A stretch of DNA of 64,000 nt from a virus: IMG/VR virus record IMGVR_UViG_3300006923_000005; one strand, given 5' to 3'. The translations under genes were made by a program, and so were the position numbers. Within the stretch, counting starts at the first letter, position 1. Each line of letters begins with the position of its first letter. Under the pieces are notes generated by a model that was not told the origin of the DNA, did no database searches, and worked only from the letters and a program-made list of their open reading frames with translations. Shown here one piece after another: positions 10,959 to 61,292 of this stretch.

Positions 10959-11933
10959 ATGCATAATGTTCGCATCGCGAAGCTAGAACTCCTCGAGGAT
11001 ATTTTTGGCACCTGCTACGAATATCGACTGGACGAAATCTCGTTTGCCTGCCCCCGCTCGGATTGTGATTCGGCTCGCAAAGGCAAAAAGAAGCTCTCTG
11101 TTAACATCGAGAAAGATAACTTTCACTGCTGGGTTTGTGCGTATAGTGGAAAGATTACACGGCTTCTTTATGACTACGGAACATCATCACACAGAGCACA
11201 ATATAATAAACTTGTAGGCATCGTTGACCTTAATGACTTTGAAAAACTACTTCGTGATGCAGCTAAAGCAGCTGAGCACGTCACTGTCGAACTACCCTAT
11301 AGTTACAAGCCTCTCACAGTTCGACCAAATGCCAGAGCCCTCGAGTACCTTGCACAGCGAGGTGTCACAACTCCTCAAATCCTGCAACGTCGAATTGGGT
11401 ATTGCAATCTTGGTCCATCAAGAGGCGCAATTGTATTTCCGTCGTACAACAGCAAGGGCCGCCTCAACTTCTTCATAATGAAGAGCATGTTGACTGGTCG
11501 CTATACACTGGCGGAGACAGAGAAATATGGCATTGTTTTCAACGAGGGTGGCATCGATTGGGGTGCTGACAATATTACATTTGTAGAGGGTATCTTTGAC
11601 GCACTGATGATTGGCGGTAATGTTGTTCCCCTCTTTGGCTCGACGTTTAGGAAAACGTATAGCCATATGAATACTAGAGCATATACTGCGCTATACCGAA
11701 AATTGAAGACAAGCAGCATCAAAAATGTCAGATTAGCACTTGATAATGATGCCGCAACAAAAGAACTACGCATTGCTGACATGCTGATTCGCGACGGCTT
11801 TACAGTATCACGGGCTCATATACCGAAGAGTGTCAACGACCTTGGTGAAATGACAAAAGAGCAAATTAGCGACCTCAATTTTACAGTTCATGATGAATGG
11901 TCGTCTATGAAAGAAATGATGCTTACCCTATGA
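10959..11933 (+). CDS. 61: DNA primase (T4 gp61-like, zinc-binding domain plus Toprim).
   Basis: Zinc-finger segment CPRSDCDS...HCWVC and Toprim-like FVEGIFDALMIGGNVVPLFG. Confidence 0.7.
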   Translation: MHNVRIAKLELLEDIFGTCYEYRLDEISFACPRSDCDSARKGKKKLSVNIEKDNFHCWVCAYSGKITRLLYDYGTSSHRAQYNKLVGIVDLNDFEKLLRDAAKAAEHVTVELPYSYKPLTVRPNARALEYLAQRGVTTPQILQRRIGYCNLGPSRGAIVFPSYNSKGRLNFFIMKSMLTGRYTLAETEKYGIVFNEGGIDWGADNITFVEGIFDALMIGGNVVPLFGSTFRKTYSHMNTRAYTALYRKLKTSSIKNVRLALDNDAATKELRIADMLIRDGFTVSRAHIPKSVNDLGEMTKEQISDLNFTVHDEWSSMKEMMLTL

Positions 11934-14900
11934 GATTTGCCCACGTTTCTGACATTCACATTCGTAATGTGAAGCGACATGATGAGTACCGTATTGTTTT
12001 TGATAAGCTGTACGAGTCACTTCGTAGTGAAAATATTGATAGAATTGTATGCACAGGTGATGTTGCTCACACAAAGACGCAGTTATCACCTGAGTACTTT
12101 TCACTAACTGTCGACTTCTTCCATCAGTTAGCAATGATAGCGCCGATTGATTTACTACCTGGCAACCATGACGGCAATCTCCGGAATAGCACACGTCAAG
12201 ATGCGCTGACACCTGTGATTGATGTTGTCAATGCCATGCAACCGGCCCATAACATCAATTACTATAAGAAGTCAGGCATCTATAGGATTAGCGACGACTT
12301 TGCTTATGGCGCATATTCATGCTTTGATGAAGATAATTGGCCACTTGAGCCTGAAAAGAATGGTCTTGAGCAGGCGCCCGTGATGATCGCCCTCTATCAC
12401 GGTGGCATAACAAATTCAACAACAGACATCGGTTGGGTGATGCGTGGTAACACCGACCAAGTAAACATTTTCGACGGCTATAGCTACGCAATGTTGGGTG
12501 ATATTCACAAGCGTCAGGTACTTGATAGGGACGGCCGCATTCGATATGCGGGCAGTCTTATCCAGCAGAACTACGGTGAAACTGCTGACAAGGGTTATCT
12601 CATTTGGGACATCGATTCTGCTGATAAATTTGACATCCAGTTCCGAGAATTGGAAGCGCCGAACCCATATATGACAGTAGAGCTCGCTGATTTTGATCCT
12701 GACGATGTTCCCACAGGAGCACGACTCAGGCTTGTCGACGGCGCCTCCATCATGAGTGATGTGAAACAGGGTATCCGTGATGAGCTCAATGAAAAGCACC
12801 TACGAGAGCTTGTTTTCACTGTCAAGCGCAGACCGACTGAAGTATCTGCGAGTGAAGAGCTTCACGAAAAGTTTTACGAGATTGACAACCAGGATGCTCT
12901 AATCAAGACATACCTTGAGGAGCGATATGGTACACTCGAACCAGCTCTACTGGCTCAAATCCTTGCTTTTAATGCAAAATACGATGGTGCATTGAAGGAT
13001 GACGGAACTGTGACGGCCCGCGGCGTGAAGTGGCGAATCAAGAACTTTAAGTTTTCTGATACACTCAACTACGGGCCTGAGAATGAGATTGACTTTGGGC
13101 GCCTGCGAGGCCTTGTTGGGCTATTTGCGGCAAACGGTTCAGGCAAGTCAAACTTCCTTGAATCTATTCTCTATACACTCACCAACAGTATCTCAAAAGC
13201 TTCTGTTAAGAATATAGACATCATACGAACAGGGCAAAATGAGTGTGTTGGTGAACTTACGCTTGATGTAAACGGTGTTGACCATGTTGTTAAGCGCTGG
13301 ACAGAGCGCCTCAATCCCGGCCGCCCAAATGAGTGGGGAAAGACTAGTCTTGAATACTCTGTAGATGGTCTTGATATGACTGGTTTGCAGCGAAATGACA
13401 CAGAAAAGGCTATTCGCACACAGTTTGGAATGATTGATGATCTTCTACTCACAATGCTCTCTTCACAATTTGGAATGCTGTCATTCATTGAGAAGGGTGC
13501 AACAGAGCGAAAGCAGGTAATCAGTCGCTTTATGGACCTCGACCGCTTCAAGCAGAAGTATGTGAAGGCCAAAGATGACATGAGTGAAATCAAGCGTGAC
13601 ATGCGTAGCTATAAGACTCCTGAAGAGTACGACGAGCTCATGCATGCATGCACGACGCAAACACGAGACCTTCGAAAGCAGCTCCGTGGCCTTGATTCTG
13701 AGAAAGAGAGCTATGAAGCTGCAATTGCTGGACATCAAGAGCAAATTGCTGAGCTTAATAGGCAGATCACGCCTATTGATCCTACGCTAATTGGTGTAAG
13801 TGAAGACTCTCTGAACGGCGAAATTGCTGAATTGGAAGATTCTCTGGGTGCGTTTGACGATCATTTAGTAGAGCTGCGTGAAGAGAGAAATAGCTTACGT
13901 TACGTTGCCGGCAAAGATTCTGATAAGCTGCGAAAAACCATTGAAGAAAGTAGAAAACAGCTTATAAATCAACGTGATACAATTCGTGAAGCTGGACACC
14001 TCACGCAGCGAGCTGCACTTCTTGAGAGTGTTCCATGTGGTGACAAGTTTCCTGATTGTCGCTTCATTGCTGATGCATTTAGCGCCAAACAAGAGTTGGT
14101 TTCTATCAATTCTGCGATTGCAGCATTTGATGATGCAGAGTCACTAACAGCGTCAATTGGTAAGGCAGAGCTTGAACTTGATAAGCAGGCGCGCTTTGAA
14201 CACTTGAAACTGCTTATTGACACTGCTATGGCAAAAAAGAAGGGTGTACGTGCTGCAATTCGCTTGAAGAATATCAAGGTTGCTGCAATCTTAAACGCAC
14301 GCGAAGCAATTGAGGAAAATAAGCAACTTGATAAGCAACTTGATGAACTTCAAGATGAACTTCATGGAGCACAAGCATATATCAATAATGCAATTGTTAG
14401 CGCCCAACGCCAGGTGTCTTCACGCATTGATGCTGTTGCTATTGATAGGGCTAGAAAAAAGGACCAGAAGGCAGAGATTGAGAAACTAAAGGCAGATTAC
14501 ACAGCTCTAGAGTATTACATTGACGCAATGTCAAAGAACGGCGTGAGCTACTTCGTCATGAAGCAGCGTCTTCCGCTTCTCAACAACGAAATCAACGCGA
14601 TTCTGTCATCAATTGTTAACTTCACGATAACACTGGAACCCGACACTGACGATAAGAAAGTTGATATCTACATCCATGATGAGAAAAAGGGCAGGCGACC
14701 AATTGAGTTAGCTGGCGGGGCAGAGAAGTTTATTTCGTCAATCGCCATGCGGGTGGCCATGATTAACGTAACAAATCTCCCCAAGACCAATATGTTTGTG
14801 ATTGATGAGGGTTTCGGCTCACTTGATCCAGAAAAGATTGATTCCATTCAGAACATGTTTACCTATCTAAAGAAGGTTTTTGACGTAGTTATCATAGTTT

Positions 14901-15019
14901 CACATATTGACCTTTTAAAAGATATGGTTGATACTACTTTAGAGATCATCATTGACGATAATGGTGCATCAAGTATTGAATACATTGGAGAACCAGATGC
15001 CACGACAATTAACGACTGA
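11930..15019 (+). CDS. sbcDC: Fused Mre11/SbcD-Rad50/SbcC recombination nuclease, equivalent to T4 gp47 plus gp46 in one polypeptide.
   Basis: ATGA overlap with the primase stop. N-terminal metallophosphatase motifs (FAHVSDIH, CTGDVAH, GNHD), then Walker A GSGKSN, long coiled coils and the C-terminal VIDEGFGSLD Walker B/D-loop. Confidence 0.75.
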   Translation: MRFAHVSDIHIRNVKRHDEYRIVFDKLYESLRSENIDRIVCTGDVAHTKTQLSPEYFSLTVDFFHQLAMIAPIDLLPGNHDGNLRNSTRQDALTPVIDVVNAMQPAHNINYYKKSGIYRISDDFAYGAYSCFDEDNWPLEPEKNGLEQAPVMIALYHGGITNSTTDIGWVMRGNTDQVNIFDGYSYAMLGDIHKRQVLDRDGRIRYAGSLIQQNYGETADKGYLIWDIDSADKFDIQFRELEAPNPYMTVELADFDPDDVPTGARLRLVDGASIMSDVKQGIRDELNEKHLRELVFTVKRRPTEVSASEELHEKFYEIDNQDALIKTYLEERYGTLEPALLAQILAFNAKYDGALKDDGTVTARGVKWRIKNFKFSDTLNYGPENEIDFGRLRGLVGLFAANGSGKSNFLESILYTLTNSISKASVKNIDIIRTGQNECVGELTLDVNGVDHVVKRWTERLNPGRPNEWGKTSLEYSVDGLDMTGLQRNDTEKAIRTQFGMIDDLLLTMLSSQFGMLSFIEKGATERKQVISRFMDLDRFKQKYVKAKDDMSEIKRDMRSYKTPEEYDELMHACTTQTRDLRKQLRGLDSEKESYEAAIAGHQEQIAELNRQITPIDPTLIGVSEDSLNGEIAELEDSLGAFDDHLVELREERNSLRYVAGKDSDKLRKTIEESRKQLINQRDTIREAGHLTQRAALLESVPCGDKFPDCRFIADAFSAKQELVSINSAIAAFDDAESLTASIGKAELELDKQARFEHLKLLIDTAMAKKKGVRAAIRLKNIKVAAILNAREAIEENKQLDKQLDELQDELHGAQAYINNAIVSAQRQVSSRIDAVAIDRARKKDQKAEIEKLKADYTALEYYIDAMSKNGVSYFVMKQRLPLLNNEINAILSSIVNFTITLEPDTDDKKVDIYIHDEKKGRRPIELAGGAEKFISSIAMRVAMINVTNLPKTNMFVIDEGFGSLDPEKIDSIQNMFTYLKKVFDVVIIVSHIDLLKDMVDTTLEIIIDDNGASSIEYIGEPDATTIND

Positions 15020-20257: not shown

Positions 20258-20393
20258 TGCACTACCTCGTCTACCAGACTACCAACACTGTCAATGGAAA
20301 GATCTACGTTGGTGTACACCAGACTGAAGAACTGAAACGTTCATTTGGCTCAACAACAAACCGCAGCACATGCGCGGCTATCATGATGACTTA
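20256..20393 (+). pseudogene. Truncated GIY-YIG homing endonuclease N-terminus (MHYLVYQTTNTVNGKIYVGVHQTE), fused out of frame to a duplicated terminase 3' end.
   Basis: Matches the I-TevI/Seg N-terminus GIYQIKNTLNNKVYVGS. Only about 24 homologous codons remain. Confidence 0.5.
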
Positions 20394-20627
20394 ATCGTAG
20401 CTTATTCACAAACCTTGTGGTTGAGGGATAGAATTGTGCTAATTAACGATAGCCGTGAAGTTGAAGGAATGCTGGCAGGCATGACGCTGTCGACGAATAC
20501 CATTCAGGATGTGACAGGTTATAAAGCTGATGAATTTGCTCCAAGAAAGCCATCACAAAGTCACTTGAAGACTAAGAGCGTATACGGCGAGAAATTTGAT
20601 GTCGACTTTTCGTGGTTGATTGGATGA
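20327..20627 (+). repeat. Diverged, recoded duplicate of the terminase 3' end (the original is 18877-19195). Its 85-aa reading frame has lost the start.
   Basis: Protein identity is about 85% (MRGYHDDLIVAYSQTLWLRDRIVLIND...). There are many synonymous changes and a 1-nt deletion at the junction. Confidence 0.75.
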
Positions 20628-20636
20628 GGGCTGATT

Positions 20637-25062: not shown

Positions 25063-25896
25063 ATGACGCACAACAAGAAGAGAAATCTCGGTGTAACTTG
25101 CGATCTAATCGTGCACAACATTGCGCGCGATACAATGGATGGCAACAAGCAGCGTGCTCGGGTCGGTGTTAACATGCTAGAGCGATACTTTGGTAAAGGC
25201 TCTCCGCTTGTTGAAGAGTATGCTCCATTCAGCATAGTTCGTGAAATGCGAATTGCTGATTTAAGCCAGGCTGACAGAACACTTGATCGTATCTTAGCAG
25301 CTGCGGCCGCAACAACAACAAACCTTGACCATGTTAAAACATCATTGATTCATGAGATGAATCGTGTGTATGGTCAAGATGTCTGGGGTACAAAGATTCC
25401 AGATTATAAGCTGTACGCTTCACTGCAGCAATTGATTACTGCACGCAAGTCTGGAATGCTGTCAGAAGCGCGTCTTGTATCTGAGCGTAATGCAGTAATT
25501 AGCCACATCACACAACCACTTGCCGAAGGCAGCGATCTACTTCAAGAATTCGATGATCCTCTTGTTCAAGTGATGATGACAGCTAATTTCAATAAGCGTT
25601 ACGCTGAGCTTCCAGGCCCAAATAGAAAGCTAATTGAATCGTTTGTCACTCATGGCATCGCGGGCACATTAGACAAGTTTAACGAGAAGCTTGATCAATA
25701 TAAGCAGGTTCTTGATAATCGCGTTAATCGTGCACTTGAGTCAGGAAACCTCACAGAGCATGTTATCTCTACTGTTCGTGAAGCGCAGGCAGTTCTTGAA
25801 GCTGCCGAGGGTGATGAGAGAGTAACACTCATCATGGAATATGCAGATCTCTCAAGGGAGCTTGAGGGAAATGATCATGCAATTAACCAAAAATGA
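25063..25896 (+). CDS. Hypothetical protein in the head-gene cluster.
   Basis: ORF in the gene-dense region between portal and protease. Confidence 0.5.
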   Translation: MTHNKKRNLGVTCDLIVHNIARDTMDGNKQRARVGVNMLERYFGKGSPLVEEYAPFSIVREMRIADLSQADRTLDRILAAAAATTTNLDHVKTSLIHEMNRVYGQDVWGTKIPDYKLYASLQQLITARKSGMLSEARLVSERNAVISHITQPLAEGSDLLQEFDDPLVQVMMTANFNKRYAELPGPNRKLIESFVTHGIAGTLDKFNEKLDQYKQVLDNRVNRALESGNLTEHVISTVREAQAVLEAAEGDERVTLIMEYADLSRELEGNDHAINQK

Positions 25897-27796
25897 TAAA
25901 GAGAGTGTCTCAAATATGGCGCAGCAGACAGTTGACGAGCGTGAAGCCCAGCTCCCAGAAGGGCTCGCCGAGGGCCTAATTGACGATGAAGATATTGAAA
26001 GCCTCAACGTTTTAGGTAGTCAAGCAGAAGAAACATCGGATCAGCTCCGCGTTGTTGGTAATTACATCGACGATGTCGGTGAGGACTATCACGAAAATGC
26101 TGCAGCTGCCGTTCAAGGCATAACAGCTGGTGGCTCAGATTCAAAGCCTCTCAAGAAGCATATCTTTGATGAAGCAAGCATCGCCGATATTGAACCCCAT
26201 TCTAAGACTGCAGCATTTGTTCTGTTTCACAATCGCGGCAAATTCCTTGTAGCTTTGCGTGCACCCGGTGGCGATTGTGGTGAAACATGGAGCAACATCG
26301 GTGGCGCCCAGGAAGCTGAAGATATTATCTCTGGTGATCCGTACACGTCATTTGTTAGAACAGCTGCACGAGAAGTTGGTGAAGAAGTTGGCGCAATGCC
26401 TGTAACTGCGAAGATTCGCGGGCACTACATGCATGAAGGTGAAGGTTTCAAGGCGTTGAACTTTATTGCTGATATTGATGATAAAACTGCAGACAACTGG
26501 AAGTTTGAGCTTCAAAAAGATGAGCTCACTGAGATTAAGTGGGCAACATTAAGCGAATTGAAATCACAGGCAAGAGATTTGCATCCGGCCTTTCGGCGAA
26601 TGCTCTTTAGGTTCTATGGTTCTGATGGTGCTGAAGTTATGGATCCGTTTGAGGGTGAGCCAGGCGGCAATCTTAAGTTCAAGCAGGCTCCATCTCGCAA
26701 ATCAAAGTCACCGACAATACCAACTGGTCGAATGTCGACAGGTGAACCAAATGCGCTGTATGGTCGTGGTTTGTTCCAGGTCGATCACGTACTTCGGGAA
26801 GACGGACCATATAACATGGTCGGAAACCCAAGTAGCGATAATTATATGAGAGACTTGTTCACACCTGACACTATTGTCTGGTACGACGGTGATGGAGTTA
26901 ATATTCCATCCTCAATTTTTGGAGAGGGACGCATAATGTCTGATCTATTCACAGCACTTTTTGAGGATTGGTCACCTGACGTTCCTGATGCAGAGCTCGA
27001 AACAAAAGATATCAAGAAAGCGGGTGACAAATCTGCAATTGATAAAGAGCGGCCAGAAGATGTAGAGCGCTACGGTGAAGATTATATCTCTGATTCAAAT
27101 AGCTCTGATATGCGCTCACCATGGGCCAGCATGTCAGAATTGTTTGATGCTGATAATGAGTCTCCTGGCGCAAAAAAGCTTGCGAAGGCAAAGCCTGAAA
27201 GCAAAACAAATGCTGCTGACCAGCGTTTAATTACATATGAAGGTTCGGGTAAAATTGATAAGTCATGGCTTGATGAATTTGATCTCCTTGAGTGGTATCG
27301 CATCGCAGAGGCAAACGATGAGCCTGAGGGCGAAGATGAAAAGGGTCCTGATTCAAAAGCAGTAGATATCAACCTTGATAATGACGCAGATCCAGATGAT
27401 GTTGCGTCAGTAAATTACGACGACGTAAAAAATCCAAGTGATGATATAAAGCGCGTCCAAGATAGAGATGACAAGCCAGATGAACCTGAAGAGCCTGCTG
27501 ATGAACCTGAAGAGGGCGACCACGCTGACGTCGGAGAGGACGGTGAAATCGACGAAGAAACGTTGAAGCGAATTCAGAGTAAGCTTGCTTCGTTCATCAG
27601 CAGGTCACTTCAGTCTGATGACCCCATAAAAGTTTTTATGTCTGGCAACTCTGTTGTTATGCAGTTCAATCGAGTTTCAAATAAGCAAACGGTTCAGTTA
27701 GTCATTGCTTCACCATCTTCTGTAGCACTTAATGTGGGACGAAAGACTGATGATGAAGCAGTTGTTGGCACAGCAATCTCAAGCGTGAACCTCTAA
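25841..27796 (+). CDS. Nudix-hydrolase-domain protein with a long acidic, low-complexity C-terminal region (start uncertain, 25871-25916).
   Basis: Nudix-box-like GGAQEAEDIISGDPYTSFVRTAAREVGEEVG. D/E/P-rich tail. Confidence 0.55.
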   Translation: MQISQGSLREMIMQLTKNDKESVSNMAQQTVDEREAQLPEGLAEGLIDDEDIESLNVLGSQAEETSDQLRVVGNYIDDVGEDYHENAAAAVQGITAGGSDSKPLKKHIFDEASIADIEPHSKTAAFVLFHNRGKFLVALRAPGGDCGETWSNIGGAQEAEDIISGDPYTSFVRTAAREVGEEVGAMPVTAKIRGHYMHEGEGFKALNFIADIDDKTADNWKFELQKDELTEIKWATLSELKSQARDLHPAFRRMLFRFYGSDGAEVMDPFEGEPGGNLKFKQAPSRKSKSPTIPTGRMSTGEPNALYGRGLFQVDHVLREDGPYNMVGNPSSDNYMRDLFTPDTIVWYDGDGVNIPSSIFGEGRIMSDLFTALFEDWSPDVPDAELETKDIKKAGDKSAIDKERPEDVERYGEDYISDSNSSDMRSPWASMSELFDADNESPGAKKLAKAKPESKTNAADQRLITYEGSGKIDKSWLDEFDLLEWYRIAEANDEPEGEDEKGPDSKAVDINLDNDADPDDVASVNYDDVKNPSDDIKRVQDRDDKPDEPEEPADEPEEGDHADVGEDGEIDEETLKRIQSKLASFISRSLQSDDPIKVFMSGNSVVMQFNRVSNKQTVQLVIASPSSVALNVGRKTDDEAVVGTAISSVNL

Positions 27797-27807
27797 GGAG
27801 ATTAATC

Positions 27808-28407
27808 ATGGCTGATCGAAAAATCCTCTGCGAATTTTACCAGCTTGAGTATGATGCTGACAAGCTTCGTGAGGATGTGGAGGCTGGTCGTGACATCATC
27901 CTCTCTGGCCGGTGCCAGCATGCTGATTTGGGAAATGCAAATGAGCGCAAGTATCCGCGTGAAATTCTTGAACGTGAAGTTCAAAATTATCAAACACCCA
28001 TTCAAGAGCGAAGAGCGTATGGAGAGCTTGATCATCCACAAGACACTGTTGTAAACTTGCAGAAGGCATCACACATGATGACTGAAGTCTGGTGGGAAGG
28101 TGATGAAGTTTTTGGAAAGCTTAAGCTAATGGGAACCCCGACAGGCCAAATTGCTGAGGCAATCCTTAAGGCAGGCGGAGTATTAGGAATTAGTTCACGC
28201 GGAGTTGGTTCGACACAAGCCTCTGGTGGCTTTGATGTAGTCCAAGATGATTTCCAATTAATTTGCTTTGATTTAGTATCTGAACCATCAACACCCGGTG
28301 CATACGTGCTACCAGAAGGCAAACGGATCTTGCGGCCAAGAGAGCGAAATGATCGCATCACCAGGATTGCAAACAATATAATTTTCCACAAGCGTGGCAA
28401 GGAGTAA
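27808..28407 (+). CDS. 21: Prohead core protease (T4 gp21 family, peptidase U9).
   Basis: RKYPREILEREVQNY, GELDHP, ISSRGVGS and FDLVSEPSTPGAYV match gp21. Confidence 0.8.
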   Translation: MADRKILCEFYQLEYDADKLREDVEAGRDIILSGRCQHADLGNANERKYPREILEREVQNYQTPIQERRAYGELDHPQDTVVNLQKASHMMTEVWWEGDEVFGKLKLMGTPTGQIAEAILKAGGVLGISSRGVGSTQASGGFDVVQDDFQLICFDLVSEPSTPGAYVLPEGKRILRPRERNDRITRIANNIIFHKRGKE

Positions 28408-30136: not shown

Positions 30137-30198
30137 AGCTTTTCTAATTAGTGCTACTATCTGGTGCTAGATATTTAACAGGATAATAGAGTTAAACT

Positions 30199-31236
30199 AT
30201 GAGTACATTCTTTGAGCATATGCGCAGCAACGTCGCTGCTATAATTCCGCAGAAAAGGAACCAGGGTGAATACCGTGGGGAACCTGTAGATGATGCTCGC
30301 ACTGACACTTTCTATCCAAAGCAGGGTATGAGTGGAAATAAGATGGGAATGTACGGAAATCCTGCAATCGCAGACCGCGGGATGACAAAGACATCAAGAG
30401 ATGCGCATCCAGCAACTACATCAATCTCATACGGTGGCAAGGGCGGCTTTCAAGACCCTGCATACGGGCCTGACGATACTGGAGAGCCTGATACAGAATT
30501 GCAGGGGATGCTGTCACTAAAGGCTGAAGCTCCAGGTAATAAAAAAGCAAATCCACTAGATGATCTCAAGAAGCGGGTCGAAGAATTCAAGCCTAAAGAT
30601 CCAAGCATAAAGCGTGTAAAGTTTCATGCATGGCCTCCCTTTCAGGGCACATTCACTGGACAGACTCATTACACACATACACTTGACTGGAAAAATGTTG
30701 CATGGGATAAAAAGACTCCAGCTGGCATTCCGACAGGTGAAAAGGGTTTTGGTCGTATCTTATCTAAGGTCGAGCGAGGCCATGTTTTTTGGCACCCATT
30801 TGATAAGCCAAAAACACTCGAGTTTGATAGCCCGTCAGCGTTTATGGATTTCATGGATAAGTTTCCATATCATGGGCTTACCCAGGACGATCTTCGACAG
30901 GTTGGTCAAGGAAAATTTGCTGCACGTTCACGCGGCAGATGGTCTTCATCTAAGAGACCCCCAGAGGGAAGCTTGGCACGCATGATGGATAAGTCAGCCC
31001 GCCAAGTTGCAAAGGCTAAAGGCGTTGCACTTAAGGATGATGAAAGAAACAGAGCAGATCTTGCGCAGGCTAGAGCCGGCGGAGATCCAGCAAAAGATAG
31101 AATTAAAGCACGGGCTGCGAAGCCTGGGCAAAAGGTAATTCGGCGAAAACCGAAGAAAACAGAAAGTGTTCATATCACAGCAGAGAGGCTTCAAGAAATA
31201 ATTCATGAAGAGGTTGCTGCGTATTATGGAATTTGA
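30199..31236 (+). CDS. Hypothetical protein with a strongly basic C-terminal region.
   Basis: ORF. Its Lys/Arg-rich tail suggests nucleic-acid binding. Confidence 0.5.
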   Translation: MSTFFEHMRSNVAAIIPQKRNQGEYRGEPVDDARTDTFYPKQGMSGNKMGMYGNPAIADRGMTKTSRDAHPATTSISYGGKGGFQDPAYGPDDTGEPDTELQGMLSLKAEAPGNKKANPLDDLKKRVEEFKPKDPSIKRVKFHAWPPFQGTFTGQTHYTHTLDWKNVAWDKKTPAGIPTGEKGFGRILSKVERGHVFWHPFDKPKTLEFDSPSAFMDFMDKFPYHGLTQDDLRQVGQGKFAARSRGRWSSSKRPPEGSLARMMDKSARQVAKAKGVALKDDERNRADLAQARAGGDPAKDRIKARAAKPGQKVIRRKPKKTESVHITAERLQEIIHEEVAAYYGI

Positions 31237-31247
31237 TCGGACTATAA

Positions 31248-31427
31248 ATGGCGAAGAATGCAGTTAGAGTGTCGGTGGCAAGAAGAGGTAATGATACGAA
31301 TCAAAAACTTATCAAGCGCTTCTGTCGAAAAGTACAAAATTCAGGTATTCTTGACGAAGCAAGAGAAAGAATGTATTTTACCGGAACACGTAGAGCAAAG
31401 AAACGCCGCAAGGCCCGCAGAAAATAG
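31248..31427 (+). CDS. rpsU: Ribosomal protein bS21 homolog (59 aa).
   Basis: MAKNAVRVSVARRGNDTNQKLIKRFCRKVQNSGILDEAREKMYFTGTRRAKKRRKARRK matches S21 blocks (V-x-V...LRRFKR-x-CEK-x-G-V/I-L-x-E-x-R, basic C-terminal tail). It falls below the 60-aa ORF cutoff. Confidence 0.7.
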   Translation: MAKNAVRVSVARRGNDTNQKLIKRFCRKVQNSGILDEARERMYFTGTRRAKKRRKARRK

Positions 31428-31433
31428 TGTCAT

Positions 31434-31462
31434 TTGACACAAATAAACGAGCACTGTTATAA
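31434..31462 (+). promoter_or_regulatory. Sigma70-like promoter TTGACA-17 bp-TTATAA upstream of the scaffold and capsid genes.
   Basis: Exact -35 hexamer, a 17-bp spacer and a near-consensus -10, about 45 bp before the scaffold ATG. Confidence 0.45.
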
Positions 31463-31506
31463 CCCAAACGCTAGATATTTCTAGACAACTACCGGAGAAG
31501 CGATTA

Positions 31507-32448
31507 ATGTCACTTTACGAAAACGCAGTCCTTGATGCAAAGAAGATTCGGGAGAGCGCCCTGCATGCCGCACGTACGGTGATGGCGGAGTCGCTTCGAC
31601 CAAAGATTGATAGCATTGTAAACGAGAGCGTAAGCGCTCACTTTGGCGAAGGAGCCGACGACATGGAATATGAGACCGAGGCCGCTGAGGACCTTGAACT
31701 TGAAAGCCTCTTTGGTGAGGTTGAGGATGAGGAGCCGGCGCCCGTTGAGGAGCCTGTTGCTGATGATGAGCTGGAAGAGCTCTTTTCTCTAAGCGAAATG
31801 GCCGATGAGGACGAGCTTGAAGAGGCTGCCGATGAGGATGAGCTCGATGAGGCTGCTCTTGAAGAGGCGCTTCGTGGAATTGCAGAGGCCGCGGGTCCTG
31901 CAACATCTGACTTTGGTGATATTGATGCACCAGAAGAGCATATTGATCCTGCGTCAGGTCTAGCCGAAATCGGTTCTGAGTACCAGGCTGGCAAGGAAGC
32001 CGGCACTGTTGCAAACGTCCAGAAGTTCGCTGCTGAGGTACGCAGAGTTCGGACTGAGAATGCAAAGCTTCGTAAGCTTGCACGAAAGACTGTGAAAGAG
32101 AATTCTACTCTTCGCAAGACAAATGGAAAGCTCTACGGAGCTCTCAAGGAAACAAATCTTTTTAACGCCAAGGTTGTTTACACGCAGAAGGTTCTGCGTA
32201 GTCTACCCAGTGCTAACGCTGAAGGTCTGAGGAAGCAAGTTGCTGAATCCTTCGACAGGGCGAAGAGCGTAGACGCGGTGAAAATCGTTGCTGAAACTTG
32301 GAAGTCAACATTGAAGAACGTTCTTGCAGAAGGTCGTCGGGTTCCATCAAGTTCCCGCTCAACTGGACCAAGTGCACGACTTAATGAGGGCGCTAACAAA
32401 CAGGTTCTAAGTGAGTCGTGGAAGCGAATCGCTGGAATCGTAAGCTAA
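31507..32448 (+). CDS. 22: Prohead scaffolding core protein (T4 gp22-like). Acidic coiled-coil protein with several L-x-E sites.
   Basis: Extremely acidic, helical composition. Lies directly upstream of the major capsid gene. Confidence 0.6.
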   Translation: MSLYENAVLDAKKIRESALHAARTVMAESLRPKIDSIVNESVSAHFGEGADDMEYETEAAEDLELESLFGEVEDEEPAPVEEPVADDELEELFSLSEMADEDELEEAADEDELDEAALEEALRGIAEAAGPATSDFGDIDAPEEHIDPASGLAEIGSEYQAGKEAGTVANVQKFAAEVRRVRTENAKLRKLARKTVKENSTLRKTNGKLYGALKETNLFNAKVVYTQKVLRSLPSANAEGLRKQVAESFDRAKSVDAVKIVAETWKSTLKNVLAEGRRVPSSSRSTGPSARLNEGANKQVLSESWKRIAGIVS

Positions 32449-32479: not shown

Positions 32480-34357
32480 ATGACTAACATGAACGCACTC
32501 TTTGAGGGAATTCGAAACCCTAATAAGAAGGCTGATCACACGCGCATGCTGAATAAGTGGCGCAAGACTGGACTGCTTGAGGGGCTGTCAGGTGAACGTG
32601 CAGGTACGATGGCAGTGATGCTTGAGAACCAGGCCCGCGCGCTTTTGGCAGAAACTAACTCGCAGGGTGGCCTTGCTGGTACGGCTTCTGATGTGCAGGG
32701 CTTCCAGAACATTGCATTCCCCATGGTTCGCCGGGTGTTTGCAGGGCTTCTGGCCAATGAGCTGGTTTCTGTCCAGCCAATGAGTCTTCCCTCGGGACTA
32801 CTCTTCTACCTCGATTATCGCTATGGCTCTGCCCGCGGTATGGGCGCAGGCCAGGGTGGAAATGAGGCTCCGAACGACTCAATCTACGGTTCACCAATTG
32901 CTTCTGAATTGCAGGCAGGCGGTGCGTCAGGTTCAGGTGGTCCCTACGATCTCCTGGGCGCAGGTTACAGCCGTCGAAACGTTGTTGTGTCAGGGTCAGC
33001 AGTTGAAGGCGACATTGTCGCAATTTCAGGTGCGGTTACTTGGGCGCAGACTGATTTCGATCCTGCTCTTGCTTCACTGTACAACCTCAGTTCTTCAACT
33101 GATCTGGTCCCCGGCCTGTTTGTTGTTGCACTATCTGGTTCTTCAACGCAGCCTGGTTTCTTCTTCGGAAGCACAAACGCTGTTTATGATGAGTCACTTG
33201 TGACTTCACTGTTCCTGTACTCAGGTTCTGTTGTAACGGAAACTGATGAGTCAGATGATGAGGCTGGTTCAATTGCTTCTGCAGGTACAATGCCGGGTGC
33301 TGTTACACAGCTCCGCCGATTGAACAAGCTTGCAACCGGTATTACCATTGCTTCACAGGTTGGTATGGGTGAAGGTGCAGACCGCGTCCACGTTTACCTG
33401 ACTGGTTCGTACACTAACTTCCAGGCAAACGCAGGCTGGGCCGATGGTTCTGTCGCTGGTGCTAACCGTACTGTAGATAATGACATTGGTATTATGTTCC
33501 CGGTCTCCGAGAACCTGATTGTTGATGGTAATACAGCTGCTGTTAGTGTTGCACCGGCCTTCGAGTCTGATTTCGGTACTCTCAATGAGATTCCTGAAAT
33601 CAACATTCGAATCAACAGTGTGTCTGTTGTGTCCGAAACTCGAAAGCTCAAGGCAGTCTGGACTCCAGAGCTTGCGCAGGACCTCAACGCATACCACAAC
33701 TTGGATGCAGAGGTTGAACTGACTCAGATTCTGTCTGAGCAGGTCGCACTTGAAATTGATCGAGAGATTCTCGGTGATCTTCTGAATGATGCTGTTACAA
33801 AGCGCTTCTGGAGCCGTGCACCTGGTAAGTTCGTCGACAAGACAACTGGCGTGATTGTCACAGACAACAACAACGGACCTCGCTTCACTGGTACAGTCCG
33901 AGAATGGTATGAGACTCTTGTCGAGACCGTGATCGATTGCGCGAACGAGATCCACCGCCTAACGCTCCGCGGCGCTGCAAACTTCCTGGTTTGCGGTCCT
34001 GAGATTGCGACGATCCTTGAGGCCTCTGTGGTCTACAAGCCTTCGCTCTCCGGCTTCGGTAACGAGGGCATGAAGATGACGATCGGTGCTGAGAAGCTCG
34101 GTACCTTGAACAACCGCTTCACGGTTTACAAGGACCCCTACTTCCCACGCCAGAAGATCCTCGTCGGTTACAAGGGTAAGAGCTTCCTGGAGACAGGATT
34201 TGTGTACGCTCCGTACGTGCCGCTTATCACTACACCAACGATCTTCGAGCCGGACGACTTCACACCGCGTAAGGGCATCATGACCCGCTACGGTAAGAAG
34301 ATGGTTCGCCCCGACTTCTACGGTGTTGTTACTGTCCTGGACCTCAACATCATCTAA
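32480..34357 (+). CDS. 23: Major capsid protein (T4 gp23 family).
   Basis: LNKWRKTGLLEGL...MVRRVFAGLLANELVSVQPMSLPSGLLFYLDYRYG aligns with the T4 gp23 N-terminal region. There is a likely gp21 site at ALLAE-T. Confidence 0.9.
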   Translation: MTNMNALFEGIRNPNKKADHTRMLNKWRKTGLLEGLSGERAGTMAVMLENQARALLAETNSQGGLAGTASDVQGFQNIAFPMVRRVFAGLLANELVSVQPMSLPSGLLFYLDYRYGSARGMGAGQGGNEAPNDSIYGSPIASELQAGGASGSGGPYDLLGAGYSRRNVVVSGSAVEGDIVAISGAVTWAQTDFDPALASLYNLSSSTDLVPGLFVVALSGSSTQPGFFFGSTNAVYDESLVTSLFLYSGSVVTETDESDDEAGSIASAGTMPGAVTQLRRLNKLATGITIASQVGMGEGADRVHVYLTGSYTNFQANAGWADGSVAGANRTVDNDIGIMFPVSENLIVDGNTAAVSVAPAFESDFGTLNEIPEINIRINSVSVVSETRKLKAVWTPELAQDLNAYHNLDAEVELTQILSEQVALEIDREILGDLLNDAVTKRFWSRAPGKFVDKTTGVIVTDNNNGPRFTGTVREWYETLVETVIDCANEIHRLTLRGAANFLVCGPEIATILEASVVYKPSLSGFGNEGMKMTIGAEKLGTLNNRFTVYKDPYFPRQKILVGYKGKSFLETGFVYAPYVPLITTPTIFEPDDFTPRKGIMTRYGKKMVRPDFYGVVTVLDLNII

Positions 34358-34384: not shown

Positions 34385-34430
34385 AAACGACAAACGCCCT
34401 GGAATGAAAGTTCCAGGGCGTTTGTCGTTT
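34385..34430 (+). terminator. Strong hairpin terminator after the capsid gene (20-bp perfect stem aaacgacaaacgccctggaa / ttccagggcgtttgtcgttt, 6-nt loop).
   Basis: Perfect inverted repeat ending in GTCGTTT. It is about 30 bp downstream of the gp23 stop. Confidence 0.6.
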
Positions 34431-35701: not shown

Positions 35702-36232
35702 TTATGTCTGTGCGACCAGGATGCCAGTTGCAACAATATTAAACACATCGATACTTGAGACATCATCTCTAGCTTTAAAAACAATCTTATCGTTTGTGCT
35801 GGCACGGAGCCGAAGACCCCACTGCAGCCCGTATGTCAACGCTGTATCAAGAACTGGGATATATCCCTCAGACGTTCCGCTAACATTACTTGCTCTAAAT
35901 GCTGTTGCTCCATCACCGAATGGTGGATTGCCATGAGCAAGTCTAATAAAATCAAAATTTGTTTTTAAGCCTTCATGCAGTGTAATACTGCCATTCGAAT
36001 CTGTAACCCATGTAAATTCTACACCGTTTGATAATGCAGCAATATTGCCAAATTTACTCAAGACTGCATTTGTATCAACTATTGAAAAAGAGATTGCTTT
36101 AACGTAGATGTCAGTAGCAAAACCCATACTATTGTAATTAGGAGACTGCCAGCTATTTTGCCCATTCTTAAAAGCATATGAAGCATAGTTTGAGCTAGAT
36201 ATATTGATGACATGCACCGTAGGAGGGCGCAA
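35702..36232 (-). CDS. Lone minus-strand gene for an Asn/Ser/Thr-rich beta protein of unknown function (start uncertain, TTG/GTG/ATG).
   Basis: The only minus-strand ORF not nested inside a + gene. The opposing + ORF (35601-35936) has a non-protein-like composition. Confidence 0.45.
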   Translation of the reverse strand: MRPPTVHVINISSSNYASYAFKNGQNSWQSPNYNSMGFATDIYVKAISFSIVDTNAVLSKFGNIAALSNGVEFTWVTDSNGSITLHEGLKTNFDFIRLAHGNPPFGDGATAFRASNVSGTSEGYIPVLDTALTYGLQWGLRLRASTNDKIVFKARDDVSSIDVFNIVATGILVAQT

Positions 36233-45816: not shown

Positions 45817-45917
45817 CTGATTTCGTTTCCAATTCCTGCTGCCCAGTAATACAATTAAAGTACTACTATAATTCTTGTAGCATTGTCTACTTATAAAGAA
45901 TTGAGGAAAAGAAACAA

Positions 45918-46148
45918 ATGACTCCAAGAGATTTTACATATTGGCTGAAAGGCTTCTTTGAGATTACTGGCCAGCGCACGTTGAGTGAGCATGAGGTAAC
46001 AGTTCTAAAGGACCATCTTGATCTTGTGATGGAAAAGCATACACCCCATCGCGATTGTAGAACAGATTCTACACTTCCATTTCCTGAACCTGAACTTCCA
46101 CGGTTAACGCCGTCAAGGCATTCATTTAGTCAGAAATTGATTTGTTAA
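45918..46148 (+). CDS. Small hypothetical protein.
   Basis: GAGGAAAAG RBS. Confidence 0.35.
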   Translation: MTPRDFTYWLKGFFEITGQRTLSEHEVTVLKDHLDLVMEKHTPHRDCRTDSTLPFPEPELPRLTPSRHSFSQKLIC

Positions 46149-58009: not shown

Positions 58010-58224
58010 GTGCTCCTCGTTATATGGTTACACTGTCTGTTCCTGGGACGAACCTGAAGAAGACAGTGAAGCTAAAAACAATCCTTGGCAACCATAAAGA
58101 ACTTGCTGCAGAGATTGCTTCAATGAATTGGAGGCAAATTGCTAATAACGCAGCTGTTGAAGCAGGCGGAGTTGGTGTCACAGCAGATGAATTTGGTGCG
58201 TATTACTTGGCACTTATTTCTTAG
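58006..58224 (+). CDS. Small hypothetical protein.
   Basis: GTGA overlap. Confidence 0.3.
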   Translation: MSAPRYMVTLSVPGTNLKKTVKLKTILGNHKELAAEIASMNWRQIANNAAVEAGGVGVTADEFGAYYLALIS

Positions 58225-58315
58225 AATCCTGTGCAATCTTAACAACTTGGAAGGTTCCAAAGTGAAAACCAAGTTGTACAATAAGGTAGGTTAAAACTAC
58301 TTATACGAGGTTGAT

Positions 58316-59511: not shown

Positions 59512-59566
59512 CTGTTGGGTCCCCGACCGACATAGGCTTCGACGAGCTCGGTCGGGGACCCAACAG
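59512..59566 (+). terminator. Hairpin terminator after gene 32 (18-bp perfect stem ctgttgggtccccgaccg / cggtcggggacccaacag).
   Basis: Perfect inverted repeat starting 7 nt after the stop codon. Confidence 0.55.
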
Positions 59567-59881: not shown

Positions 59882-61069
59882 ATGGTAGATGATGTAATGA
59901 GTGCTGCAGAAGCCTTTGAGAAGGGTTTTGCTCCGCTAGAAGCGCAGGCACGCTTTCAACTGGATGATTTAATTTCCTCATTGAACAAGGGAAGAAAGGG
60001 TGGCCCTCTTGCAATCGATCTAAGAAAAGACGATCCATTTGAGGGGCAGAGGTTTATATCAACAGGATCAACACTTCTAGATTATGCTATTAGTAATCGC
60101 GCAGATGGCGGCATCCCTGAAGGTAAAGTAATTGACATTGCGGGCTTCAACAGCGCAGGCAAGTCGCTTATGGGCGCCGTTATCTTGGCCAACACTCAAA
60201 AAGCTGGTGGACTGGCTATCTTAATTGATACAGAGTTTGCAGCCAATTTTGAGTTTATGGATATGCTCGGTGTTGACAGGGAAAATAACTTCCTATATCT
60301 TCAGCCAAACAATCTAGAAGAATGTTTTGTTTCAATTGAGAAGATCATCAATTTGGTTATTGCAAAGCGAGCAGCAGGAAATGACAGACCTGTAACTATT
60401 GTATGGGACAGTGTGTCTGCAACAAAACCTGCTGCCCAGCACGACGCAGATTATGATTTCAACATGAATAAGAATCTCATGTTTGCAAAGCAAATTTCTG
60501 GTGGCATGTCTAAGGCACTGCAACACTTTGATAAGGCAAACGTTACGCTGGTTGTGACAAATCACTTGAAGAATAAAATTGGCGCAGCAATGGGTGAGGA
60601 TGAATTCTATAGCCCAGGCGGTGAAACAATTCCTTATTACGCTTCTGTTAGAATACGATTGCATCACAGCAAGCGCATTAAACCAAAAGACGGTGAGAAT
60701 GCCTTAAAGAGAAAAGGGATGGTCTGCCGGTCAGAAGTAATCAAAACAAGATTCGGTCCTCCCTTCAGGCAGATGAAGTTTCCAATTTATTTCGCTGAAG
60801 GAATTGGTGATATTGAGTCTTGGTATCCGGTATTACGTGAGCAAGGATATATTAGTGGAACAAATCCAAAACGTTTGCACAAAAAGGGTGCAAGCAAAGG
60901 CGAAGGAATTCCATTTCAATACAGTGACAGCGATCATTCTGGCTGGATGGAACTAATTAAAACAGATCCAGAAGCTCATGCATTGGCACTTAGTTTTCTT
61001 AATGAGCACCTAGTTATGAAGTACATTAAGCGCGGCGGGCATACAACGGAGGTTCCGGATGTCAACTAG
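59882..61069 (+). CDS. uvsX: RecA-family recombinase (UvsX-like).
   Basis: Walker A GFNSAGKS, Walker B TIVWDSVSA and RecA-like loops. Confidence 0.8.
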   Translation: MVDDVMSAAEAFEKGFAPLEAQARFQLDDLISSLNKGRKGGPLAIDLRKDDPFEGQRFISTGSTLLDYAISNRADGGIPEGKVIDIAGFNSAGKSLMGAVILANTQKAGGLAILIDTEFAANFEFMDMLGVDRENNFLYLQPNNLEECFVSIEKIINLVIAKRAAGNDRPVTIVWDSVSATKPAAQHDADYDFNMNKNLMFAKQISGGMSKALQHFDKANVTLVVTNHLKNKIGAAMGEDEFYSPGGETIPYYASVRIRLHHSKRIKPKDGENALKRKGMVCRSEVIKTRFGPPFRQMKFPIYFAEGIGDIESWYPVLREQGYISGTNPKRLHKKGASKGEGIPFQYSDSDHSGWMELIKTDPEAHALALSFLNEHLVMKYIKRGGHTTEVPDVN

Positions 61070-61292
61070 ATATTCGATGCTGTTAAAGGCAGAATCAAAA
61101 ATTCACTTGGCAACTAAGGGTGCTGTTGGTTTTATTTATCCATCGCATGAAACTGCTGTTACATTAGAGCAAGAAACTGTGACTGTTGTACCTGAACTAT
61201 GCGACTTTACGGGTGGAAGATTAACAGCAGTCTTTCGAGACACTACACTTTTTTGGGTGCGCAAAGAAGACTTAGTGGAGTGTGATGGCTAA
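61059..61292 (+). CDS. Small hypothetical protein.
   Basis: ORF. Confidence 0.3.
   Translation: MSTRYSMLLKAESKIHLATKGAVGFIYPSHETAVTLEQETVTVVPELCDFTGGRLTAVFRDTTLFWVRKEDLVECDG

Follow-up and report, generated by a model that had tools for sequence, protein, structure and literature searches.

A divergent, probably functional bS21 homologue between the prohead protease and capsid genes of a T4-like myovirus

Among the ribosomal proteins encoded by viruses, phage bS21 is the most common. A short open reading frame (ORF) among the head genes of the IMG/VR virus record IMGVR_UViG_3300006923_000005 raises the questions of whether it encodes another member of this family and, if so, what such a protein could do during infection. 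Based on the analysis of the window (the whole stretch of 64,000 nucleotides presented here), the ORF was concluded, with a probability of roughly three in four, to be a functional phage-borne bS21 homologue and to belong to an S21 lineage housed in the head-morphogenesis module, from the prohead protease to the Gp23 capsid gene, of an aquatic T4-like myovirus clade.

A first-pass annotation had placed a 59-codon ORF in a 270-bp gap before a scaffold gene, and the coordinates were borne out, with the ORF on the plus strand; the gap extends from the end of a 345-aa gene at 31236 to the start of the scaffold-like gene at 31507 (Table 1). The peptide given at that stage was correct in all residues except one, as the DNA encodes EARERMYF and not EAREKMYF. 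The same annotation described the gene as hidden below the ORF cutoff, which holds for a cutoff of 60 aa only: in the JGI data, the exact same protein (P0001) has already been called as a gene on four contigs, the longest of 179,159 bp, with a precomputed PF01165 match. The predicted protein has 59 aa, 21 of which are K or R.

Table 1. Features of the S21 locus and its neighbourhood (positions in the window)
Feature	Position	Strand	Remarks
Prohead protease (T4 gp21-like)	27808..28407	+	phrog_207, E=2e-49
Second exact copy of CTAGATATTT	30167..30176	+	23 nt upstream of the 345-aa gene
Upstream 345-aa gene, no Pfam or PHROG match	30199..31236	+	C-terminus 58% identical to the L021 fragment upstream of S21
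Spacer between upstream gene and S21, 11 nt	31237..31247	+	weak GGA only; no 4-mer Shine-Dalgarno core
bS21 homologue, coding sequence	31248..31427	+	ATG at 31248, TAG ending at 31427 (stop included), 59 codons
Sigma-70-like site TTGACA-N18-TATAAC	31434..31463	+	unsupported as a conserved promoter
20-nt block CGCTAGATATTTCTAGACAA with palindrome CTAGA-N4-TCTAG	31469..31488	+	100% conserved in L021, spacer around it diverged
Acidic scaffold-like protein (T4 gp22 position)	31507..32448	+	starts 79 nt after S21; GGAG at 31494-31497
Major capsid protein (Gp23 family)	32480..34357	+	PF07068, E=2.6e-77; phrog_138

That the product is a phage-encoded S21 had been put forward as a claim testable with the Ribosomal_S21 profile, and the search was positive. 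Pfam Ribosomal_S21 (PF01165) was the sole Pfam match (E=1.3e-5; 25.3 bits, with the gathering score set at 27), and NCBIfam TIGR00030 matched with E=2.9e-5 and 23.8 bits against a curated equivalog cutoff of 28.95. Because the scores fall under these curated cutoffs, by 1.7 bits (Pfam) and 5.2 bits (NCBIfam), the protein is regarded as a divergent member of the family. The single PHROG match was phrog_21469, 'ribosomal protein S21'. When the PDB was searched with phmmer, all 27 matched chains were S21, the best being spinach chloroplast bS21 (E=1.1e-5), and the alignments span the non-basic core of the protein. A word-indexed protein search with the single window sequence returned nothing besides the sequence itself, and an exhaustive phmmer search of 1.84 billion representatives returned 23 proteins, every one of which matches Pfam S21 individually (E<=0.001, best 2.1e-18). 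A profile built from the alignment of these 23 homologues retrieved bS21 and bS21m only from the PDB, down to 3.5e-14. Moreover, the protein is predicted to adopt a three-helix fold corresponding to the helical hairpin and C-terminal helix of bS21, and its best structural matches are bS21.

It could be argued that a chance ORF merely mimics S21 through an arginine- and lysine-rich composition, as the shortness of the ORF and its very basic C-terminus might suggest. This explanation has a negligible probability, being refuted by shuffling and by the conservation of an orthologue. The real sequence scored 76.6 bits against a remote-homologue profile, whereas the best of 5000 composition-preserving shuffles reached 13.7 bits and the reversed sequence -2; as this profile was built from query-selected sequences, the comparison controls for composition and is not an independent proof of homology. 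The alignments, for their part, include the non-basic core.

The orthologue (P0002, 67% identical to the window S21) is found on L021, a 505-bp ENA contig, where the C-terminus of the same upstream gene is followed by a spacer and then by S21. Of the reading frames compared in the window and L021, the S21 frame alone is open in both. In this one pairwise comparison, pN was 0.27 and pS 0.85, and the differences by codon position were 23/12/36, with the third position varying most, so that the single pair of window and L021 indicates purifying selection on the S21 frame. These data also bear on the idea that the ORF is a decaying, functionless remnant of a captured rpsU, with which the sub-threshold profile scores, the short C-terminus, the lack of a Shine-Dalgarno (SD) core and the dispensability of the gene in some relatives (see below) would be compatible. 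Such a remnant is highly improbable, as the ORF is intact in two genomes between which the synonymous sites of the S21 genes are saturated, pN/pS is ~0.3 and the core motifs are conserved. Judging from the sequence comparisons, the ORF is thus very probably a genuine and functional phage bS21 homologue.

The core motif LIKRF-x-RK...SGILDEARER-x-YF is present in the window S21, and of the four core motifs of the family, the first three ([LI]-[IL]-[KR]-R-F, G-[IV]-[LI]-x-E and R-x-R-x-[YF]-[YF]) could be found, as LIKRF, GILDE and RERMYF, respectively; the fourth is K-P-[ST]. The window S21 and P0002 differ in two features from all other S21s compared, the S21s of related phages among them. The near-universal K-P-S/T turn is replaced by T-G-T in both proteins, and both stop right after the first basic cluster, giving a length of 58-59 aa versus 67-78 aa in other S21s. 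The sub-threshold profile scores are attributed to the TGT turn and the missing C-terminal tail. With the KPS/T motif lost and the tail missing, the geometry of ribosome binding could differ as well. The length is inside the natural range of bS21, as solved bS21 chains of 57-58 residues exist. Compared with cellular bS21 (rpsU), the window protein shares the core motif L-I-K-R-F-x-R-K...G-I-L-x-E-x-R-E-R-x-Y-F, the predicted three-helix fold and the basic C-terminus; it differs in its identity of only 28% to E. coli bS21, its sub-threshold scores, its TGT in place of KPS/T and its location in a viral head-assembly operon.

The window belongs to a T4-like myovirus, with a T4-type TerL, portal, prohead protease, scaffold, Gp23 capsid protein and sheath, and all of its substantial ORFs lie on the plus strand. 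S21 is co-oriented with these T4-type head and tail genes and the same protein occurs on a 179-kb JGI contig, which together identify the gene as phage-encoded. No near-identical DNA was found among deposited phages, and the nearest cultured relatives by major capsid protein (MCP) are distant: Microcystis phage Mel-JY01, Flavobacterium phage immuto and Rhodothermus phage RM378. The scaffold-like protein shows weak homology to the gene preceding the MCP gene in three related loci (L001-L003) and Mel-JY01. The MCP is long (625 aa). Its main Gp23 profile match covers residues ~314-614 and another stretch is matched as well, a pattern suggesting that the protein contains a large additional region that the Gp23 profile lacks.

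Several other features of this genome were observed. Between the portal and prohead protease genes in the head module, positions 25841-27796 (+) encode a protein of 651 aa in which a NUDIX domain spans residues ~122-256. At 11897-15019 (+), an N-terminal calcineurin-like phosphoesterase (Mre11/SbcD-like) and SMC_N/AAA_23 (Rad50/SbcC-like) domains are joined in one ORF of 1040 aa. The T4 counterparts of these two parts are two genes, gp47 and gp46, and by its domain matches the ORF would be a gp47/gp46-type fusion. A perfect 20-bp inverted repeat with a 6-nt loop (34385-34430) directly follows the MCP stop at 34357 and is probably a terminator or an mRNA-stabilising hairpin, and a perfect GC-rich inverted repeat of 19 bp with a 17-nt loop (59512-59566) marks the beginning of an intergenic region of 376 bp. 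Scanning the whole window for tRNA genes and Rfam families gave no matches. The genome is otherwise tightly packed, but no plus-strand ORF of at least 100 aa lies in 20258-20636, 35937-36231, 45817-46148 or 58010-58315, stretches of 300-380 bp each in which small genes or uncharacterised RNAs are possible.

The position of bS21 genes in phages is well documented. Mizuno et al. 2019 described 1310 viral genomes or contigs with bS21, mostly aquatic and lytic and under purifying selection (PMC6375957), and Chen et al. 2022 reported that bS21 is embedded in the TerL/portal/protease/MCP region and co-expressed with late structural genes, with the prohead protease and MCP genes typically 2-4 genes away from bS21 in 900 published bS21 phages (PMC9723584). 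Phage bS21 and its habitual place near the prohead protease and capsid genes are thus already known, and the window matches this pattern. Its S21 gene likewise lies near both of these genes: it is the fifth gene after the protease, stands immediately before the scaffold gene and precedes the MCP gene by two genes, whereas in the known phages most similar to it, such as Mel-JY01, S21 stands two genes after the protease.

Relatives on longer sequences support the same placement. Among the S21 relatives encoded on long contigs, P0093 (60% identical over the core), P0042, P0039 and P0091 are the closest. In all four cases, in phages of about 130-185 kb (130-190 kb when Mel-JY01 is counted in), the S21 gene falls within the interval from the prohead protease to Gp23 and has the same orientation. 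Three of these loci (L022, L024 and L026) have portal proteins ~50% identical, proteases 44-46% identical and MCPs 42-62% identical to those of the window. In L022 and L024, the gene after the protease resembles a 189-aa gene of the window, which would fit a shared ancestral arrangement with later insertions, and the exact slot of S21 varies between phages. Among cultured phages, Mel-JY01 (PP395634.1) carries an 'RpsU ribosomal protein S21' (45 bits with Pfam) on the same strand in the interval from the prohead protease to a Gp23-type capsid gene; its MCP is ~40% identical to that of the window, and its S21 shares 38% identity with the window S21.

On the other hand, S21 was not found in the protease-to-capsid interval of L001-L003 (MCP 49% identical) or of Flavobacterium phage immuto, which implies that the gene is dispensable for the head module; as it is present in some relatives and absent in others, its distribution is patchy. 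A 75-aa ORF after the immuto protease was considered as a candidate and rejected, as it is not an S21. Of the IMG/VR loci, the 16 that carry the nearest viral S21 genes (L004-L019) contain no homologue of the window head genes within 8 kb and are therefore uninformative on synteny. A metagenome scan with the two-sequence alignment detected one unrelated short contig, L020 (1.5 kb). On this contig (135-777), an S21 gene (53 bits with Pfam) is overlapped by the next ORF, which, by inspection of its sequence, looks like a GroES/gp31-type co-chaperonin.

How the gene might be transcribed was considered next to its intergenic surroundings. The first-pass annotation had placed a near-consensus sigma70 promoter at 31434-31462. 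The TTGACA hexamer is indeed present at 31434-31439, 6 nt past the S21 stop, but the -10 then proposed, TTATAA at 31457-31462, agrees with TATAAT at only two of six positions. The -10 is better read as TATAAC at 31458-31463, which gives a spacer of 18 nt; this hexamer lacks the conserved final T. A promoter scan of the region did not call the TTGACA site, and promoter-like sites numbered 6 versus 9.3 in shuffles; moreover, neither the -35 nor the -10 hexamer is conserved in L021. The near-consensus sigma-70 promoter was therefore rejected as unsupported. TTGACA is one arm of a small palindrome, GTGTCATTTGACAC, at 31427-31440.

A different element stands closer to the scaffold gene. The 20-nt block CGCTAGATATTTCTAGACAA, fully conserved in L021, is a candidate for an element that regulates the scaffold and capsid genes or serves as their promoter. 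RNA structure as the reason for its conservation is unsupported, the fold of the spacer being unremarkable (z=-1.1). The exact copy of CTAGATATTT ahead of the 345-aa gene is, from its position, a candidate promoter element for the unit formed by this gene and S21. One-mismatch copies of CTAGATATTT occur on the plus strand at 36195-36204 (28 nt before the gene at 36232) and 61066-61075, and the core CTAGATAT(T/A)T is found 23-28 nt upstream of three start codons. The total count of CTAGATATTT is no higher than expected by chance, and all copies are on the plus strand, three of them ~25 nt before starts and in intergenic DNA, which makes up ~6% of the window. Given this placement, which is suggestive, the CGCTAGATATTTCTAGACAA/CTAGATATTT element is a candidate phage (possibly late) promoter or operator.

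The translation signals may point to a link between S21 and the gene before it. Because the spacer is only 11 nt long, contains no SD core of its own and has the same length in L021, co-transcription of S21 with the 345-aa gene is suggested, possibly with translational coupling. In the window as a whole, 48% of ORFs are preceded by an SD core versus ~9% in the background, and the protease, scaffold, MCP and sheath genes are among these ORFs. These widespread SD sites argue for an SD-using host and against a scenario of anti-SD sequestration as in Bacteroidetes. The latter mechanism, involving Tyr54, was proposed by Chen et al. 2022 for phages of freshwater Bacteroidetes hosts, which lack SD-led initiation (PMC9723584). 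The window phage resembles those phages in having bS21 in the TerL/portal/prohead protease/MCP region, where the proposed role is the late-stage translation of structural proteins. It differs from the clades of Chen et al. 2022, in which bS21 lies on the reverse strand, in that S21 is co-oriented with the head genes and follows its upstream gene by 11 nt, and it also differs in the use of strong SD sites by its genes. Owing to the same-strand gene and the SD usage (48% versus 9%), the window phage was not assigned to these clades.

Since the gene is co-oriented with, and 11 nt from, an upstream head-module gene, we infer late expression: S21 would share a late transcript with the neighbouring head genes, probably in second place in a unit starting at the 345-aa gene. 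The small basic protein would then bind the 30S platform near the 3' end of 16S rRNA, the normal bS21 site, supplementing or replacing host bS21, and initiation capacity might be kept or tuned for the burst of late structural mRNAs, which are strongly SD-led in this phage. That the protein would act by incorporation into ribosomes, favouring phage late translation, is given a slightly better than even chance. The role of bS21 in initiation is established knowledge (as cited in PMC6375957), and a bias of initiation toward phage mRNAs, as suggested for this gene at the outset, is a hypothesis already published for phage bS21 (PMC6375957, PMC9723584).

The sole published functional test is an assay of E. 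coli ribosomes with a pelagiphage bS21, in which bS21 of Pelagibacter phage HTVC008M was incorporated and the ribosomes showed about 5% of normal activity (PMC6375957); in view of this value, a stimulatory role is not established even family-wide. The same result is what favours the alternative that phage S21 enters host ribosomes mainly as an inhibitor or discriminator, so that host mRNAs are poorly translated and host shut-off follows, and the divergence of the window S21, with its lost KPS motif and truncated tail, would suit such a function. Yet the activity of about 5% may reflect heterologous incompatibility, as its authors note (PMC6375957), and the place of the gene in a late structural module does not suit host shut-off, typically an early function; an inhibitory role is therefore considered unlikely.

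A further alternative moves the protein from the ribosome to the virion. T4 encodes core and internal proteins in the region between protease and scaffold. The window S21 gene stands among prohead-core genes, from protease to scaffold, and its product is strongly basic and, in the KPS motif and at the C-terminus, unlike canonical S21, all of which would agree with an S21-derived protein exapted in the head. Such a protein could belong to the prohead core or the internal proteins, or it could bind nucleic acid, be packaged along with the DNA and possibly reach the next host. However, the rRNA-binding core of S21 is well conserved and under purifying selection, the same placement is seen in phages with a fully canonical S21 (such as Mel-JY01 and L020), no capsid-targeting signal was identified in the window S21, and incorporation of viral bS21 into ribosomes has been published (PMC6375957). 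Exaptation in the head is thus rather improbable. A related and still more speculative idea, to which very little probability is given, is that the window S21 and P0002 form a derived S21 subtype, defined by the TGT turn, the absence of a C-terminal tail and of an own SD, and a gene abutting the scaffold gene, which might serve either in the prohead core or as a packaged protein that enters the cell along with the DNA, or else as a switch of ribosome specificity with altered contacts to the 16S 3' end. If true, this subtype would reprogram ribosomes differently from canonical phage bS21.

Returning to the reading as a ribosomal bS21 of a phage, the window protein resembles the bS21 of other T4-like and jumbo phages (HTVC008M, Mel-JY01 and PA5oct) in that a large myovirus of lytic type encodes an S21 homologue that is small and basic. 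It is distant from that of Pseudomonas phage PA5oct (~46% identical over 37 residues), and it differs from the S21s of these phages in its length (59 aa versus 67-75) and in having no KPS/T motif. The window S21 thus adds a divergent, truncated variant of phage bS21, as well as a case in a clearly SD-using phage, unlike the Bacteroidetes phage model. It also provides further evidence for an S21 lineage in the protease-to-capsid interval across a broad aquatic T4-like clade, and represents an extra data point on an existing question rather than the opening of a new one.
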